Below, one piece after another: positions 4,498 through 48,317 of a DNA stretch of 64,000 nucleotides. Source of the stretch: a virus. A program made the translations under genes and the position numbers. The DNA lies in the IMG/VR virus record IMGVR_UViG_3300008516_000204, positions 1 to 64,000 of that record; one strand, 5' to 3'. The notes under the pieces are model-generated. The model was not told the DNA's origin. It worked only from the letters and a program-made list of their open reading frames with translations, and made no database searches. The stretch's first letter is position 1. The number at the start of each line of letters is the position of its first letter.

Positions 4498-5607
4498 TTA
4501 TATTTTTCTCATAGATAATCTAACTCTACAAATCATTGCGGTATCTCCATCAGCTTTAAAATCTACATCTATTGTGTGTAAATTAGTATCTGCGAAATTC
4601 AATCTTTTAAATCCAGAAGAATTACTATATTCATCTGCCATATTAGCTTCATGATATACACGATTGATTTGAGTTGTGTCGTCTAATTCAACCTGAACAA
4701 GAGTAGCTGAACCAACTTTACTATTTGCAGTTTCTAAAGACCACTCTAATAAATAATTTCCAATAGAAGGAGGTGTAAATTCCATACTATATTTTTCTTG
4801 CCAAGCAGTATCGGTAGTAGCTGATACTGTTTCATCTTCTGCATAAGTAACATCTGCTATGGGTCCAGTTGGTCCAGTAATACCCTGAATTCCTTGTGGT
4901 CCAGTAGGACCAGTTGTGCCTGTATCACCTTGTAAACCATTCTGCCCAGTAACTCCCTGTGGACCAATAGGCCCTGTAGTTCCTGTTCCTGTAGGACCAG
5001 TGGGACCAGTCTTACCAGTTATACCAGTAACACCATGAGGATTGTCAGTACGAGTATCGTGGTCGCCATCTGTTACTAAATCAAGTTCGGTTTTATTATC
5101 ATGATCGTGTTTTTTAGCTAAAAGGTCGGTATCTATTTCGCCATCTTTAATTACCACGCCTTCAATTGTTATCCCCGCATCAAGTGTGTATTCATTTATT
5201 GTGTCTATAAATCCACAACCTGTTACATCAAGACCACAATCAAATTTAAATTTGTCTTTAGCCTCCTGCCAAATAATTTCTCCATCCCCGTTATTACCAG
5301 AAAATTTAATTTTATAATCTATACCAGTCGCACCATTTCCTATTCTAAGTGCTTCTGCTAGAGATGTATCTATATGCACTCTTCCATCAGCATCCACAGT
5401 AACTTTATCTACCCTTAATGCCTCATCTGTATTTTGAATATGCTTTTTAGCAATAGCATCTTTTATATCATTCTCATCTTCTATGATTACAAAATCTCTT
5501 ATTTCAGATTCAGGATGAGTAGAACAAGTTACATTCTCATCAACAGTCTCCTGCTCTAAATACTCATAGTGAGCACCATCTATACAATAAAATCTAACTT
5601 TATACAT
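4498..5607 (-). CDS. Collagen-like virion fibre protein
   Basis: About 20 GXY triplets; shares HIQNTD, KHxHxNK and DNPH motifs with the neighbouring fibre gene. Confidence 0.75.
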
Positions 5608-29092: not shown

Positions 29093-29607
29093 CTAAAAGA
29101 GAACTTCAGCGAAAATTAAAGAAATTAGAAACCAAACTAAAAAGATATAAAAAATTTAGTTGGTATGATGACTTAACCAATCTTTTTAATAGAAGAAAAT
29201 TAAAGAGAGATTTGAATAGGTTATGCTATGATTATAAGAGATATAGACATATATTTATGATGATTTTAATAGATATAGATGGATTTAAAGAAATAAACGA
29301 CACCAAAGGACATTTGGAAGGAGATAGAGTTTTAAAGAAATTTGCAAATATAATTAAAAAAGCTATTAGAGAAACTGACAGAGCCTACAGACCGAGTGGA
29401 GACGAATTTGTTATTGTATTACCTCATAGTAATATTAAAAGTGCCAATAATGTTATACGAAGAATTAAGACAAATGCACAGGTAAATATAAGTTATGGAA
29501 TAGATAGAGGAAAGAAACCAAAAGAATTGCTTATTAATATAGATAAAAAAATGTATGAAAATAAAAGGAAGAATACTACAAAGAATAGAATAATAACTGG
29601 GACTTGA
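29089..29607 (+). CDS. Diguanylate cyclase (coiled coil + GGDEF domain)
   Basis: DDLT..NRR, IDIDGFKEINDTKGHLEGD, I-site RETD five residues before the A-site SGDEF, ISYG, D..MY..K. Confidence 0.93.
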   Translation: MTKRELQRKLKKLETKLKRYKKFSWYDDLTNLFNRRKLKRDLNRLCYDYKRYRHIFMMILIDIDGFKEINDTKGHLEGDRVLKKFANIIKKAIRETDRAYRPSGDEFVIVLPHSNIKSANNVIRRIKTNAQVNISYGIDRGKKPKELLINIDKKMYENKRKNTTKNRIITGT

Positions 29608-29632
29608 CAAATTAGGTTTTATAGCATATACT
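29604..29632 (+). promoter_or_regulatory. sigma70-type promoter P5 overlapping the GGDEF stop codon
   Basis: TTGACA (29604-09)-N17-TATACT (29627-32). Confidence 0.85.
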
Positions 29633-29663
29633 TAAATATATAGGTTAAAGAGTAACTTAACGA

Positions 29664-29747
29664 TATCCTCGATAAAGGTAAACCAGCCGAAAGACTGGGG
29701 CACAAAACTCAAGGTCGTTTTAAGCGAAGCCGAGTTGCCGAAGGATA
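29664..29747 (+). ncRNA. c-di-GMP-I (GEMM) riboswitch aptamer 1
   Basis: P1 TATCCTCG/CGA-AGGATA; GATAAAGGTAAA-CCAG-CCGAAAGA-CTGG-GGCACAAA-ACTC...AGCC-GAGTTGCCGA matches the GEMM consensus including the GNRA loop. Confidence 0.9.
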
Positions 29748-29764
29748 GGTAATTCGGCTTTTTT
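29727..29764 (+). terminator. Intrinsic terminator overlapping aptamer 1 (ON switch)
   Basis: AAGCCGAGTTGCC-GAAGGATA-GGTAATTCGGCTT ending in a T6 run. Confidence 0.88.
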
Positions 29765-29813
29765 ATTTAGGAGGAATTTCTGAAGTAGTATAACTTCAAC
29801 ACACAATTTGATT

Positions 29814-29888
29814 TACGATAAAGGCAATTCGCTAGTATAGCGAAGCGCAAAGCTGTGGGTCAGAGATGATAGCCGAGCTACCACAGTA
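29814..29888 (+). ncRNA. c-di-GMP-I (GEMM) riboswitch aptamer 2
   Basis: CGATAAAGGCAA-TTCGCTA-GTA-TAGCGAA-GCGCAAA-GCT..GGGTC..GATAGCC-GAGCTACC. Confidence 0.85.
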
Positions 29889-29909
29889 TTCGGTAGCTCG
29901 GCTTTTTTT
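29871..29909 (+). terminator. Intrinsic terminator overlapping aptamer 2 (ON switch)
   Basis: Perfect 12-bp AGCCGAGCTACC/GGTAGCTCGGCT stem ending in a T7 run. Confidence 0.92.
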
Positions 29910-29928
29910 CTAAAAAAGGAGGTCTAAA

Positions 29929-30510
29929 GTGCCTATGAAATTAATTAACCGATTAATAATAGCAACTATTTTATGCTCGGTAAACTTAATAGCTTATGGG
30001 GAAGTGATGGAGGGCGAGGGTTTTGCTATCGGTGGGTTAAAGGGCAGATATTATGAAAATGGTGGATGTATCTATTTTATTGGGGATTTTACAGAGAAAG
30101 AAATTATTATGCACCAACAAAAATATGAAAAAAGAATGACTAAAAGAGCAAGGCAAGTCGATGGTGAAATACAGCGAAAACATGAAATAGAGATTGAGAA
30201 AATTAGGGCTCAGGCATTGAGAGATTACCTAATTGCTCAAGATATGCCATTACGAGAAATTGCGGATGCTATGAGAAATCTTAAAATTAGGCAGAATGTA
30301 AATATAGGAGATATTACTTCCTCAAGTTCTTCTTCTATTGGGGATATAACAAATACATCCTCCTCAATTTCCGAAGGCAGTAATGCTACAGGAACTGGTG
30401 GAACTTTAACCAATACAAATACCAATTCGGCCAGAAGTTGGGGTTGCCCTTGTATAAAATGTCTTGAAGCGCCACTGCTTGAGACCATACCAAAAGAATT
30501 AGAATATTAA
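29929..30510 (+). CDS. Riboswitch-controlled putative secreted protein (coiled coil + S/T/N-rich tail)
   Basis: SD AAGGAGGT, GTG start; signal-peptide-like N-terminus ending IAYG; IGDIT-Sn repeats. Confidence 0.75.
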   Translation: MPMKLINRLIIATILCSVNLIAYGEVMEGEGFAIGGLKGRYYENGGCIYFIGDFTEKEIIMHQQKYEKRMTKRARQVDGEIQRKHEIEIEKIRAQALRDYLIAQDMPLREIADAMRNLKIRQNVNIGDITSSSSSSIGDITNTSSSISEGSNATGTGGTLTNTNTNSARSWGCPCIKCLEAPLLETIPKELEY

Positions 30511-36451: not shown

Positions 36452-36677
36452 AATTAAGAAGACAAAGCAACTTATAAAGAAACTAGAGCCTTATTGGAAA
36501 GAACTGCAAGAAATTGAAAGAGAGTACTATAGTGCAGTTTATAGATTAGAAAAGAGAATGTCAAAAGAAATTGGGATATTGGGTTTAGAGTTTTTCCAAT
36601 GTGATAATTTCTTTGTAGGAATTGGTAATTTAGAGAGGACATTGCCACTTATTCACGCTAGGGAGTTAGAAAAATGA
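36441..36677 (+). CDS. Hypothetical protein
   Basis: SD, overlapping neighbours. Confidence 0.6.
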   Translation: MKNKIKKTKQLIKKLEPYWKELQEIEREYYSAVYRLEKRMSKEIGILGLEFFQCDNFFVGIGNLERTLPLIHARELEK

Positions 36678-37213
36678 TAGTTACCGATACTAAACAATTA
36701 CTAATATCTTGTAAAAATGTTCAGCCAGAACAGGCAAAAGAAATTATCCAAAAGCTGGAGAAGGAACTTGTCTTACACAAAAATGGCATAGGACTTTCAG
36801 CAAACCAAATCGGCATCGATGCTAAAGTCGCTATCATTCGTATTCCTGACAAGGAAAAGATTGACCTGATAAATCCCAAAATAGTCGAGCATAGCAAGGA
36901 AATCGTGTTCTACAAAGAGGGTTGTTTGAGCTTGCCTGACCAGAAAAAGGAGATAACGATCCAGAGATACGAGCAGATAACCATCGAGAATGGATTTGAC
37001 AGGACTAAATATGTATTGTATGGGATGGAAGCGATTGCTTGTCAACACGAGATAGACCACCTAAATGGGTTATTGATTACTGATAAGCAAGCCAAACCAT
37101 ATGCAAGACCAGAAAGAAAGATAGGCAGGAACGAGAGATGCAAAGTTTGTGATATGAAATATAAAAAGCACACAAATTCCAATCACGGATTTATTCCAAA
37201 AGAGGGGGAATGA
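36674..37213 (+). CDS. def: Peptide deformylase with SEC-C-like C-terminus
   Basis: GIGLSANQ, EGCLS, QHEIDH; tail KIGRNERC..C..KYKKH. Confidence 0.93.
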   Translation: MIVTDTKQLLISCKNVQPEQAKEIIQKLEKELVLHKNGIGLSANQIGIDAKVAIIRIPDKEKIDLINPKIVEHSKEIVFYKEGCLSLPDQKKEITIQRYEQITIENGFDRTKYVLYGMEAIACQHEIDHLNGLLITDKQAKPYARPERKIGRNERCKVCDMKYKKHTNSNHGFIPKEGE

Positions 37214-38088
37214 TTGAGATGATAAAGTCATTGAGACGAATATTATACACAGTTTTGGTAATCGCTGTTTTGTCCAATGCTTTTATTCATATAAGGGAAA
37301 TTGAAAAGTCGATTTCATTAGAACAAAAAGTAGAAAAAAATGAGACTGTATCACGATTTTCTTTCCAGTTAATAGGTAGCATTTTTGATAATTATGCCAA
37401 AATTATTGCCGATTTGTATAATAGAGTTGATGTTCTTTCTAAAAAGATAGTTGCGGTCAAACCAGATTTTGAAAGATTGATGAACGGAACGGTTATTATT
37501 TACAATGAAGAATATGTAGTTGCTGGGGTGTGCATAGAAGAGGATGAGGATTTTTATTATATCCTGACAGTTCAGCACTTGCTTGGAGATAGAGAAAATG
37601 AAATTTCAAGTCATATAGATACCGTCCCCGAATCGAATATGGGACTGGCTGTCAAATTAGAAAAGATTCAGCAATTTTTTCAAGAGAAAGCATTACAGCA
37701 ATTTGTCCCCAGTGAAGATATTACAGCTATAACTGTCCAGATGAGAAATCATACAATGGTAGCTGGGGAATTTTTATTTGTAAATTATGATTTAGATTTG
37801 GGTTTCCTGAGAATATATAAAAGTGAAAGAGTGGAACTTGAGGTATTAAAATTGGCCGAACCTTATCCCAAAGTAGGAGATGAAGTCTATGTTTTAGGAC
37901 ATCCATTAGGGAGAAAATACAATCTTTCAAAAGGTATAGTGAGCAAAACAGATATTGATTCCACTTATTTTGGTATTGATGCTCTTACTACTTTTGGTAA
38001 TTCGGGAGGTGCTGTTTTTAATAATAGAGGAGAAATCATTGGTATCTGTAGTATGGTTCCAGTGTATAGCTTTGAAATAGAGGAATAA
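37210..38088 (+). CDS. Membrane-anchored trypsin-like serine protease
   Basis: ILTVQH, DL..L, GHPLG, GNSGG; N-terminal TM and coiled coil. Confidence 0.88.
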   Translation: MIEMIKSLRRILYTVLVIAVLSNAFIHIREIEKSISLEQKVEKNETVSRFSFQLIGSIFDNYAKIIADLYNRVDVLSKKIVAVKPDFERLMNGTVIIYNEEYVVAGVCIEEDEDFYYILTVQHLLGDRENEISSHIDTVPESNMGLAVKLEKIQQFFQEKALQQFVPSEDITAITVQMRNHTMVAGEFLFVNYDLDLGFLRIYKSERVELEVLKLAEPYPKVGDEVYVLGHPLGRKYNLSKGIVSKTDIDSTYFGIDALTTFGNSGGAVFNNRGEIIGICSMVPVYSFEIEE

Positions 38089-39947: not shown

Positions 39948-42900
39948 ATGAAAACTATAGCATTAGCAATGATAGTCAAAAACGAATCGAGAGTGATAAA
40001 GCGTTGCCTCGATTCTGTCAAAAACATTATTGACTATTATGTGATAATAGAGGACACCGCTTCTACCGATGGCACAGCAGATATTATTCGTGAAACCCTG
40101 AAAGATATCCCAGGCGAGATAATACAGAAGGACTGGGTAGGATTTGCGGATACTCGAAACCATTATATTGAGGCATCGAAAGGGAAGGCGGATTATATTT
40201 TGGTAATGGATGCCGACCAAATTTTGGAAGTTGATAACGATTTTGACAAGGATAAATTGGACAAGGACATTTATAACTGTATCGTGAAATATCCCACATT
40301 GCAACACCATTTCCCCAAGATATTTAGACCAGATTGCGGATGCAAATATAAGGGCATTATACATAACTTTTTATCTACGAGTAATGTAACTGTGGGACAG
40401 CTAAATAATATCAGATTTTTAGATCTACACGACGGGAAGCGGGCAATGAATTATTCGGAAAAGATAAAGAAAGATATTGAGATTTTGAAAAGTGCTATTA
40501 AGGCAGACCCAGCAAATAAAGTGAGATATACATTTTACTTGGCACAATCTTTGCGTGAAGATGGAAGATATGAACAGGCTATTAGATACTATAAGAAACG
40601 AGTAAGTTATAAGGGTTGGCGAGAGGAAGTTTATCGAAGTTTATACCAAATAGGTAATTGTTATTTAGCACTTAAAGATTATAATAGAGCTATCTACAGT
40701 TACTTAAAAGCATATAATTACAGACCAACGAGGGCAGAATCTATTTTCAAATTAGCACTTTTATATCGCAATCTCGGACAGAGGCAATTGGCGTACGAAT
40801 TTTCTAAAATAGGAATCGGGATTAAGTATCCCAAATCCGATACATTATTTGTTGAGCATAATATCTACGATTATCTAATGTTGTTTGAGTATTCAATTGC
40901 CCTTTATTATGTAGGAAGATATGCGGAGTCGATTAGGGTTTGTAATAGGATAGATTCTATGGTGGGAGTTCCCAAATCTATTAAAGAACAGAATAGAAAA
41001 AATCGGGAGTTCTCGCTGAATAAGATTTCAGAGTGGTCTATGGACAAGGAAATGTATAATTGGATAAGAAGAAATGTACCCAGAGGGGGTACTATACTTG
41101 AACTTGGAAGTGGGAAAAGCACGATAGATTTAGAAAAGGATTATAGAGTATATTCAGTAGAGCATAGTAAAGAGTGGTTAAATCTCTCACCCAAAAGTAG
41201 ATATATTTATGCTCCGATAAGAAAGGGTTGGTATGATATTGATGTATTGAAAAGGGAGATGCCAATTCACTATAATTTGATAATTGTGGATGGTCCGCCA
41301 GGATATATAGGAAGAAAGGGTTTCTATGAGAATCTAAAATTGTTTAATACCAAAGTTCCCATTCTATTTGACGATACCAATCGCAAAGCAGAAAAAGGTT
41401 TATTGGAAAAGGTAGCAAAGAAATTAAGAACCAAATATACAGAATATAATGTCAGTAATAAAAAGTTTGCTGTGCTTAATTATATAGAGAAAAAGCCTAA
41501 GAAATATGATGTTATTTTCTATGATAATGTTACAACACCATTTACTTCAAGGACTTGGAAAAGTAAGGCTGTCGGGGCTTCAATATTGGAAGCATCATTA
41601 TTGCTAACTGAACTCGCTAAAGAGAAGAAAGTTTTGGCTTTTTCTCGGACAGATAAGTCAAAGGTACAAGATAGAATTTTGTGGAAGAATTATAATAATT
41701 GCTACAATTATGAGTGCGATACTCTGATAGTTTTCAGATACAGTAGTTTGCCTCCAATTAAGTATAAAAGACTTATCGTATGGGCACACGATGCACCACC
41801 ACTCGCCCATAGGCATTTATTTGAAGCATTAAATAGGGATAACGCAACTTTGGTTACAATATCGGATTGGCAGAAATCTCTTTTCGAAAAATATGTAAAG
41901 AATATTGAGACGATAAGATTATGGCTTCCAGATTGGATTTACAGTTATAAGACAGAAAAAGACCCAAATAAATATATCTATGCGAGTGCCAATGTGAAAG
42001 GATTAGATAGCACGATTAAACTGTGGTCGGAACTAAAAAGAGATAGCCGAATGATAGGGGCAACCTTGTATGTTTGTACGCCTGGATATGACAAAGTGGA
42101 TGAACAAAAATTGAGGGAAGCAGGTGTAGTATTTTTAGGAAGCCTTCCAACATTAGAAGATGTAATCAGGGAAATTGCAAGTTCGGTAGGAATGTTTTAT
42201 GTCAATGATTTTCCAGAGACATTTGGGGTATCTCCTTATTTGGCAGAAGTATTAGGTTGCCGAACTCATATTTTATGTGTAAAAGGATTTGGTGCTTTGA
42301 GAGAAGTGTTGAATAGCGATTTACTGACAGATGATAGGGATAAGTTTATGGCAGATGTTTTGGAGGCACATCAAAATGGTGGGCATATATTTGAGCCAGA
42401 TGTACTTACAAAAGAGGAACAATATAGAAAATGGAAGGCAATGATAGATAAAAAGGAAATCACCGAAATCCTACAGGAAAGCGATATTCCAAAAGGGATG
42501 TATTTGAGGAATTTTGAGGGTGGTAAAGAGGGATTACAGGAACTGATTAGCAACTTACCGAAGAATTGTGTTATGGCTGAAATTGGAAGTTATATTGGAG
42601 AGTCTACTGAATTATTTGCTAAAAATTGTTTTAGAGTTTATGCTATCGATGCTTGGGAAAATTATTACGATAAAAATGATAAATCATCTTATCAGTATCC
42701 TATGAAGTTAGTAGAGCAGGCTTTTGATGTTAAAACAAAAAAATTCTTTCTTAAGATAGTAAAAATAAAAAAATATAGTAAAGAAGCAAGTGAGACTTTT
42801 GGAAACAAGATTTTTGATTTTGTCTACATAGATAGCAATCATCAGTATGAGAATATCCTTGAGGATATTAAGATTTGGTTGCCGAAGATAAAGCCGAATG

Positions 42901-46855: not shown

Positions 46856-47406
46856 AAAAATATCAAATTATATATGTAGATCCTCCTTGGTCTTACAACG
46901 ATCAAGGTTGTCAAGGAACAATGGCAAATCATTATAAAGGTATGAAACTGGAGGATATTAAGAATCTTCCTGTGAACCAAATAGCCGATAAGAATAGTAT
47001 ATTATTTTTATGGACAACTTATCCAATGTTGCAAGAGGCATCGGAAGTGATAAAGGCATGAGGCTTTCAATACAAGAGTATTGCCTTTCAATGGGTCAAA
47101 CTAAATCCCAAAGCCCTAACCCCTTTCTATGGATTAGGGAGACGGACACGGGGTAATACAGAACCATGTTTATTGGCAACAAAAGGTAAGCCTAAAAGAG
47201 TAAGTGCCTCTGTTTTTCAACTAATATTTGCTCCTCGCAGAAAGCATAGTCAAAAACCAGATATAGCAAGAGATAAAATCATTCAACTAGTAGGAGATTT
47301 ACCTCGTATAGAATTGTTTGCTACAGAGAAAATAAAAGGATGGGATTCAATAGGTTATGAGATCGATGGCAAGGATATACGAGATGTTTTACAGGAGATG
47401 ATATGA
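46852..47406 (+). pseudogene. MT-A70 family adenine methyltransferase interrupted by an in-frame TGA (47059-61)
   Basis: DPPW; IKA*GFQYKSIAFQWVK continues in frame to NTE.CL.ATKG..HSQKP..RIELFA. Confidence 0.85.
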
Positions 47407-48317
47407 AAACAAATAAAAATCTTAATTATTATATCAAGGTCTGTAAGAAATTGATAGATAGGCCATACAATAAATTCAATCTGGGCAACTATCGAGGCAT
47501 TATGGCATCTGAATATGATACCCCTGTTTACTCCTACCCAACAAAATCAGATAGCCCGATTAAGTTGATGGCAGGACAGCATAGAGAAGCCCAGATTATT
47601 TCCACCGATTATCAATTTAAGCATAATAAAAGGCGAATTATCTTGGTGGGAAAAGGGATTTTATTTGATTCAGGTGGATATAATCTAAAGCCCAAAATGG
47701 TGAATATGAAAAGTGATATGGCTGGGATGGCTGTCTCATTTGCTGTAGCTTCTTATTTTAAAAAGCAAAATGATGTAATTGCCTTCTGCCCTGTTGCAAC
47801 GAATTTTCTTGATGGAAATCAGATAATCCCTGGCGATGAAATAAAAATAGGTAATAAAATTGTTAAAATAACCAATACAGATGCGGAGGGAAGATTGATT
47901 TTAGCCGAGGCACTTTCTGAATTAAAAGTCAAACCCACAGATATAGTAATCACAGTTGCGACTTTAACTGGGGTTGTGGGCTATGCGATAGGTGATAAGG
48001 CTACTGGCGTTTTTAGTCCTAATAAAAGATTGGCAAATAAGTATTTGGAAGCATCTAAAAAGGCAAAAGAACTGGCATGGGAATTGCCCTTATGGGATTA
48101 TTTGCAGAAGCATTTTGATAAGAAGAAAATTAAAAATGTCCAGAAGATAAATCCAGGTGCCTCAATGGGAGCAATGTTTCTCAAGCAATTTGTTAGATAT
48201 CCCCAAAACTGGTTACATCTCGATATCGCTTATTCTGCTTGGGATAAGAAAAAGGAAAAGGCAACTGGTGAGCCAATTAAATCGTTAGTTCAATTTATAG
48301 AAAGGATAGGGCAGTAG
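47403..48317 (+). CDS. pepA: M17 leucyl aminopeptidase (catalytic domain)
   Basis: VGKGI.FDSGG..LK, MK.DMAG, NTDAEGRL, ATLTG, HLDIA. Confidence 0.92.
   Translation: MKTNKNLNYYIKVCKKLIDRPYNKFNLGNYRGIMASEYDTPVYSYPTKSDSPIKLMAGQHREAQIISTDYQFKHNKRRIILVGKGILFDSGGYNLKPKMVNMKSDMAGMAVSFAVASYFKKQNDVIAFCPVATNFLDGNQIIPGDEIKIGNKIVKITNTDAEGRLILAEALSELKVKPTDIVITVATLTGVVGYAIGDKATGVFSPNKRLANKYLEASKKAKELAWELPLWDYLQKHFDKKKIKNVQKINPGASMGAMFLKQFVRYPQNWLHLDIAYSAWDKKKEKATGEPIKSLVQFIERIGQ

Follow-up and report, generated by a model that had tools for sequence, protein, structure and literature searches.

Riboswitches of the c-di-GMP-I class (GEMM-I; Rfam family RF01051) have as their reference structure the Vc2 aptamer of Vibrio cholerae, reportedly described by Smith and by Kulshina in 2009. 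Vc2 is a three-helix junction in which G20, A47 and C92 contact the ligand and in which the GAAA tetraloop of the first hairpin docks into a receptor in the second hairpin. Members that lack the receptor, designated 'type 2', have been described ever since the motif was discovered.

Tandem c-di-GMP-I riboswitches outnumber every other known tandem class, 347 doublets and 12 triplets being on record, and have been read as giving digital responses for binary lifestyle changes (PMC9481103). A second survey also reported that the class is enriched in tandem form (PMC12452182). In Bacillus thuringiensis, three near-identical units make up the Bc3-5 triplet, which precedes cspABCDE on the chromosome. 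Measurements showed this triplet to be more stringent and more digital than doublets or singlets; its terminator has a 5′ arm that takes in the C92-type binding base, P1 and a portion of the last helix (PMC4759541). Because of these surveys and measurements, both the architecture that we describe here and the sharpened threshold ascribed to it are already known. In phages riboswitches are rarely found, and a survey of 2017 named two examples of the c-di-GMP-I class, both in Clostridioides difficile prophages (PMC5473149).

The phage record IMGVR_UViG_3300008516_000204 comprises 106,111 bp with direct terminal repeats, and its first 64 kb (64,000 nucleotides, hereafter the window) encode a portal protein, a primase-helicase and other phage functions. 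A leader of 320 nt, flanked by a GGDEF gene and by the gene encoding a 193-aa protein, houses two matches to RF01051, both of which pass the curated gathering score of 35 bits that sets membership of the family (Table 1). Beyond these two, no RF01051 match was found in the whole 106,111-bp record, and the leader contains no open reading frame of at least 60 aa. We interpret the leader as two complete and independent c-di-GMP-I riboswitches in series, a reading to which we assign, from sequence and computed structure, a probability of about 0.8. The presence of two GEMM-I aptamers in series had already been proposed in an earlier, sequence-only reading of this DNA, and it is borne out by the two family matches and by the finding that each aptamer has an expression platform of its own.

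As in the surveyed tandems, the two aptamers belong to the same class, lie in one leader, have their own terminators and are predicted to act independently, that is pseudo-cooperatively; unlike in that survey, which covered bacterial genomes and whose text does not treat phages, the doublet resides in a 106-kb phage and follows a phage gene for a c-di-GMP enzyme (PMC9481103). With Bc3-5 the locus shares the proposed ON logic and the independence of the units, but it has two diverged units, and these precede genes for a putative membrane protein and a sigma-region-4 protein (PMC4759541). Like the C. difficile prophage elements (Sudarsan 2008, cited in PMC5473149) it is a phage-borne c-di-GMP-I riboswitch. 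As far as the 2017 survey describes them, however, those are single aptamers in temperate phages with a known host, whereas here a doublet is found in a large uncultured phage, beside a phage GGDEF gene.

Table 1. Predicted elements of the riboswitch leader and the adjoining genes. Positions are those of the window.
Feature	Position	Strand	Description and basis
Stand-alone GGDEF protein, 172 aa	29089..29607	+	PF00990 E 7.9e-35; TIGR00254 115.8 bits (cut-off 37.4)
Leader promoter	29604..29632	+	sigma-70-type TTGACA-17-TATACT; both hexamers identical in L003
Aptamer 1, c-di-GMP-I	29664..29747	+	RF01051 match 29667-29742, 50.9 bits, E 5.3e-07; pair table
Aptamer 1 P1	29664-69/29742-47	+	UAUCCU/AGGAUA, clean 6 bp
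Aptamer 1 binding-base equivalents	G20 = G29677, A47 = A29704, C92 = C29738	+	pair table
Aptamer 1 2-bp helix adjoining G20	29678-79/29702-03	+	GU/AC
Aptamer 1 first hairpin	29683-98	+	CCAGCC-GAAA-GACUGG, GAAA = 29689-29692
Aptamer 1 second hairpin	29706-36	+	AG bulge, UUUUAAG loop
Intrinsic terminator 1	29726..29767	+	14-pair stem 29726-39/29748-61, then U run; -22.4 kcal/mol
Spacer	29769..29798	+	Shine-Dalgarno-like AGGAGG 29769-74, then 6-bp hairpin 29781-86/29793-98
Aptamer 2, c-di-GMP-I	29810..29891	+	RF01051 match 29813-29885, 49.3 bits, E 1.3e-06; pair table
Aptamer 2 P1	29810-11/29890-91 + 29814-16/29886-88	+	weak, bulged, 2+3 pairs
Aptamer 2 binding-base equivalents	G20 = G29823, A47 = A29849, C92 = C29881	+	pair table
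Aptamer 2 2-bp helix adjoining G20	29824-25/29847-48	+	GC/GC
Aptamer 2 first hairpin	29828-44	+	7 bp, GUA triloop
Aptamer 2 second hairpin	29851-79	+	short, AG bulge, GAGA loop 29863-29866
Intrinsic terminator 2	29871..29909	+	perfect 12-pair stem 29871-82/29892-903, then U7; -22.8 kcal/mol
First regulated gene, 193 aa	29916..30510	+	includes AAGGAGG ribosome-binding site; start GTG 29929 or ATG 29935
Second regulated gene, 114 aa	30540..30884	+	PF08281, PF04545; TIGR02937 51.6 bits (cut-off 42.9)

Both aptamers open with CGATAAAGG (at 29670 and 29816) and, like Vc2, have equivalents of G20, A47 and C92, the last of which we take to be the first C after the last helix, following the Vc2 numbering. 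The pair tables were drawn up from explicit coordinates, a MAFFT alignment of the four aptamers of the window and of the related phage contig L003 being one column off around the first hairpin of aptamer 1. In all four the secondary structure of the family, consisting of P1, the 2-bp helix, the internal loop, the hairpins and the AG bulge, is paired. The sequence-only reading was accurate on the common start, on the retained G20 equivalent that marks the c-di-GMP type and on the difference between the two aptamers in the 2-bp helix at the base of the first hairpin. Its helix names differ from common usage, and it omitted the 6-bp P1 of aptamer 1 and both terminators.

The loops also agree with what had been described. 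The GAAA loop of aptamer 1, beneath which lies a single C-A mismatch, is unlike that of Vc2 in that it finds no partner: a tetraloop receptor of the CCUAAG/UAUGG type is absent from the second hairpin of this aptamer. Aptamer 2 has a first loop that is not GNRA and carries its GNRA sequence (GAGA) on the short second hairpin instead. Neither aptamer, then, has a first-hairpin GNRA loop that could dock into a second-hairpin receptor, an arrangement that defines the 'type 1' subclass only and is unnecessary for c-di-GMP-I membership. To call the tertiary contacts atypical, as the sequence-only reading did, is to overstate the case, since such loops fall within the variation of other members; first loops are non-GNRA in several other aptamers that start with GGCAA, across many phyla. 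The bulge in P1 of aptamer 2 is likewise present, but this helix consists of 2+3 pairs only, is constructed differently in L003 and is thus weakly supported.

The scores of the two aptamers, around 50 bits, compare with 85-89 bits for canonical members in other viral contigs, so that the term 'divergent' given to them is apt and the strength of binding is uncertain. Scores that are modest for the family would also be expected if the matches were due to chance and the region were merely a pair of terminators between operons. This explanation, to which we give practically no weight, is already contradicted by two same-strand matches above the curated cut-off in one intergenic leader with a promoter upstream, by the standard manner in which each aptamer overlaps a terminator, and by the conservation of the arrangement in L003.

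In both units the 5′ arm of the terminator is formed by the 3′ strand of the second aptamer hairpin together with the C92 equivalent; the terminator loop of unit 1 also contains the 3′ strand of P1. A terminator scan yielded three sites compared with 0.5 in shuffled sequences. The leader as a whole folds with a z score of -6.15, and both terminators appear in its minimum-energy and centroid structures. In computations without ligand the terminator is the preferred fold of the full units 1 and 2 (-37.5 and -41.6 kcal/mol), and folds restricted to the aptamer are less stable (-18.8 and -22.6 kcal/mol). Each aptamer has its own platform, and the pair is served by one upstream promoter and one downstream ribosome-binding site, as is characteristic of a tandem. 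Judged from these predicted folds, the layout of each unit is that of a standard transcriptional ON switch, and because each aptamer has its own terminator, whose 5′ arm lies inside the aptamer, the leader would comprise two independent ON switches in series.

According to the proposed mechanism, host RNA polymerase would initiate at the sigma-70-type promoter of the leader. When c-di-GMP is lacking, each unit would fold into its strong terminator hairpin and transcription would end at the U run. When c-di-GMP is bound co-transcriptionally, P1 and the second hairpin would sequester nucleotides of the terminator 5′ arm and allow read-through. Two complete units in series would mean two independent decisions, both of which must be passed, so that the probabilities of read-through would be multiplied; the basal level would be lower and the response to c-di-GMP steeper than with a single unit. 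The output would be the 193-aa protein and the sigma-region-4 protein, and probably also the products of the small genes behind them. We infer that the aptamers bind the ligand, that the logic in vivo is ON and that the response is steeper; by analogy with the described tandems, a steeper and more digital response of the phage doublet is to be expected.

As for the ligand, G at the specificity position is found in c-di-GMP binders and A in binders of c-AMP-GMP (PMC9481103). Neither aptamer has the A at the G20 position that distinguishes the c-AMP-GMP type (GEMM-Ib), nor the G at the A47 position that distinguishes the GGC variant; in L003, matches to the model of that variant (RF03167) scored 50.4 and 31 against a cut-off of 59. 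These observations bear on the suggestion, made in the sequence-only reading, that the two aptamers respond to different ligands, for example c-di-GMP and 3′3′-cGAMP, and thereby form a two-input AND gate. The aptamers do differ in their loops, internal loops and P1, and AND gates are known from ON/ON tandems whose members belong to different classes (PMC9481103). The G at the specificity position and the equivalents of A47 and C92 are nevertheless present in both, and the enzyme gene beside the leader is of the ordinary GGDEF kind; the suggestion finds no support, and we consider two different ligands very unlikely. Given the same differences in loops, internal loops and P1, it is possible that the two aptamers differ in affinity for the ligand.

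In the phage contig L003, whose primase-helicase is 95% identical to that of the window, the promoter hexamers are unchanged, and the two aptamers, each with its terminator, are found again together with the spacer hairpin. Identity between the two phages amounts to 80-81% in the aptamers and 67% in the spacer. Aptamer 2 of L003 matches RF01051 with 57.1 bits, and its second-hairpin loop is of the GNRA type in both phages (GAGA in the window, GAAA in L003). Aptamer 1 of L003 scores 33.5 bits, slightly below the 35-bit cut-off; UA replaces the conserved AAA, and the GNRA loop is lost, with GAAUU in its place. Both aptamers of L003 have the G20, A47 and C92 equivalents. In aptamer 1 the first hairpin has changed from CCAGCC/GACUGG in the window to CCCACU/AGUGGG in L003 with the pairing kept, one to three pairs being strictly compensatory depending on the register, and P1 of this aptamer is kept by means of a shift of one pair. 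In terminator 2 the changes are one-sided, with G-U pairs keeping the stem paired. The covariation rests on very few events, in that the leader occurs in two phages only and the count depends on the alignment register. The sequence conservation is thus modest as evidence, coming from two phages, and all of it points in one direction. The leader is absent from the relatives L004 and L007; L007 is a metagenome contig in which a homologue of the regulated gene lies in a different operon and has no riboswitch upstream. In L003 some 180 additional nucleotides (5140-5322) lie between terminator 2 and the gene homologous to that of the 193-aa protein; they include a short reading frame rich in Cys (…CKDCQNKNCKW…), which the window lacks.

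The divergence of aptamer 1 raises the question of whether unit 2 is the sole working sensor and unit 1 a decaying duplicate. Terminator 1 would then be a fixed attenuator or the end of an upstream early operon, and the leader would regulate as one riboswitch whose maximal output is reduced. Consistent with such decay are the C-A mismatch and the GAAA loop without receptor in the window, the lower score, the lost GNRA loop and the altered AAA in L003, and the 5′ half of aptamer 1, which is where the leader differs most between the phages. A decaying unit is hard to reconcile, however, with the retention of G20, A47, C92, P1 and all helices in both phages, with a window aptamer 1 that lies above the Rfam cut-off, and in particular with the re-paired first hairpin and the shifted P1, which point to continued selection on the fold of aptamer 1. 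We therefore regard a single working sensor as unlikely, though deserving of some consideration, and prefer the reading that both units are functional.

The units themselves are probably related by descent. Unit 1 (29661-29806) aligns with unit 2 (29807-29945) with a z score of 5.3, and since this alignment continues through the terminator, the U run, AGGAGG and TCTGAAGT/TCTAAAGT, the probable origin of the doublet is the duplication of one entire unit, in which aptamer, terminator and ribosome-binding site were copied together. In the spacer, AGGAGG and the hairpin are then probably what is left of the duplicated unit's ribosome-binding site and start. As regards the hairpin (29781-29798), which the sequence-only reading had singled out, its six base pairs are kept in L003 with one change from G-C to A-U, but its fold is no better than those of shuffled sequences (z -0.42).

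The 5′ strand of P1 of aptamer 1 (29666-29670) is complementary to the Shine-Dalgarno-like purine run after terminator 1 (29771-29775; UCCUC/GAGGA). Its counterpart in L003 pairs 4878-4882 with 4980-4984 (UCUCC/GGAGA), two positions covarying relative to the window. This pairing may be a helix that closes off unit 1 after read-through, or a by-product of the duplicated ribosome-binding site. Together with the distance of only 62 nt between the units, it could also be taken to mean that the two aptamers constitute one cooperative sensor, in the manner of glycine aptamers. Yet each aptamer has a complete terminator with a U run, which is the published mark of independence (PMC9481103), and no helices between the aptamers were found; one cooperative sensor consequently appears extremely unlikely, and we retain the reading of two independent switches.

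On the + strand there are four strong promoters that resemble one another (19624, 21543, 25543 and 29604), and that of the leader comes last. The pattern of this family can be written cTTGACaaa...TTTTat.tGGTATACTTAt, with 11-12 of 12 hexamer positions matching. The four mark the early region, which is read by the host polymerase. Other + strand matches with 11 of 12 positions occur at 41247, 57372 and 69671 and lack the extended family pattern; leaving these three aside, no comparably strong sigma-70-type promoter was seen at an obvious intergenic site of the + strand beyond 29604.

Immediately upstream of the leader lies the GGDEF gene, whose stop codon is located inside the -35 hexamer of the leader promoter. 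Its product has the A-site SGDEF and, five residues upstream, RETD as an RxxD I-site, and is likely to be a diguanylate cyclase on the basis of these motifs and the family matches. The same slot in L003 (3275-4816) is occupied by a gene for a 513-aa REC-GGDEF-HD-GYP protein, the GGDEF domain of which is 32% identical to that of the window. The flanks are orthologous, the small upstream open reading frame being 73% and the sigma-region-4 protein 79% identical. On this comparison, the exchange of the c-di-GMP enzyme genes is a cassette swap directly upstream of the same leader. The presence of two different c-di-GMP enzyme genes in one slot argues for a functional link to the switch, albeit an unproven one.

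The first gene under putative control of the switch encodes a protein with an N-terminal hydrophobic helix, on account of which it is predicted to be a membrane protein, followed by a conserved core with a long helix and by a tail rich in Ser, Thr and Asn. It has no family match in Pfam, PHROGs or NCBIfam and no usable match in the ESM Atlas, and its structure model is of low confidence (pLDDT 55). Homologues were identified in L003, in L007 and as P0002 on a 110-kb contig; the alignment-based search for them returned the contigs L003 and L007 only. When viral contigs were searched with the 193-aa or the GGDEF protein singly, no matches were obtained, and a protein-alignment search of genome contigs likewise gave none. 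The 114-aa product of the second gene covers positions 70-165 of TIGR02937 only, corresponding to region 4 of sigma-70/ECF sigma factors. It falls short of the length of a full sigma factor and may act as a region-4-like activator or as an appropriator of the polymerase. Farther downstream of the riboswitch the window contains a block of genes for a peptide deformylase (36674-37213), a trypsin-like protease (37210-38088) and an M17 aminopeptidase (47403-48317), functions of host-like protein maturation.

The public runs that contain the phage DNA are marine sediment metagenomes, with no RNA run listed among them, and the riboswitch region has no nucleotide match in the INPHARED phage collection. 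Neither the portal protein nor the aptamers point to a host. The portal protein matches Streptomyces phages at only 28% identity, which is uninformative in this respect, and the likeness of the aptamers permits no assignment, since a pattern scan of bacterial genomes placed similar aptamers in many phyla, including Omnitrophota, Planctomycetota, Clostridia and Deltaproteobacteria. The window contains no tRNA genes.

An exact-pattern scan of IMG/VR combined with Rfam revealed at least nine additional viral contigs carrying single c-di-GMP-I-clan aptamers, six of them RF01051 and three of the GGC variant. A looser pattern scan of viral contigs produced 118 chance matches and no real aptamer. In one contig (L135) a riboswitch of the clan lies between two GGDEF genes, and in two others (L143 and L156) an HD-GYP gene is found downstream of the riboswitch and a pemK RNA motif some 2.7 kb downstream. 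Two GGC-variant aptamers (RF03167) are 1.9 kb apart in L146. In L151 the two aptamers are 0.5 kb apart with an open reading frame between them, and hence belong to separate leaders.

As the tandem class is numerous and its digital behaviour has been measured, the RNA element alone adds little. The interest lies in the phage setting, namely a doublet placed between a c-di-GMP enzyme gene and a sigma-like regulator in two phages that have different enzymes. If the enzyme feeds the switch, the locus would represent a compact, virus-borne second-messenger circuit and would offer a natural pair of diverged c-di-GMP sensors with a sharp threshold. Tentatively, and with more doubt than confidence, such a phage-run circuit could be a developmental checkpoint. 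The early phage enzyme (GGDEF in the window, REC-GGDEF-HD-GYP in L003) would set the level of c-di-GMP in the infected cell, and once the sharp threshold was crossed the tandem ON riboswitch would open the last early promoter to the sigma-region-4 regulator and the genes that follow. A checkpoint of this kind fits the slot that holds two different c-di-GMP genes between orthologous flanks, and it fits the position of the leader promoter as the last of the four strong sigma-70-type promoters, with no comparable intergenic one seen later on the + strand apart from the three further 11/12 matches. If this is true, a second-messenger riboswitch would serve as a viral early-to-middle timer or as a gate that responds to the state of the host.
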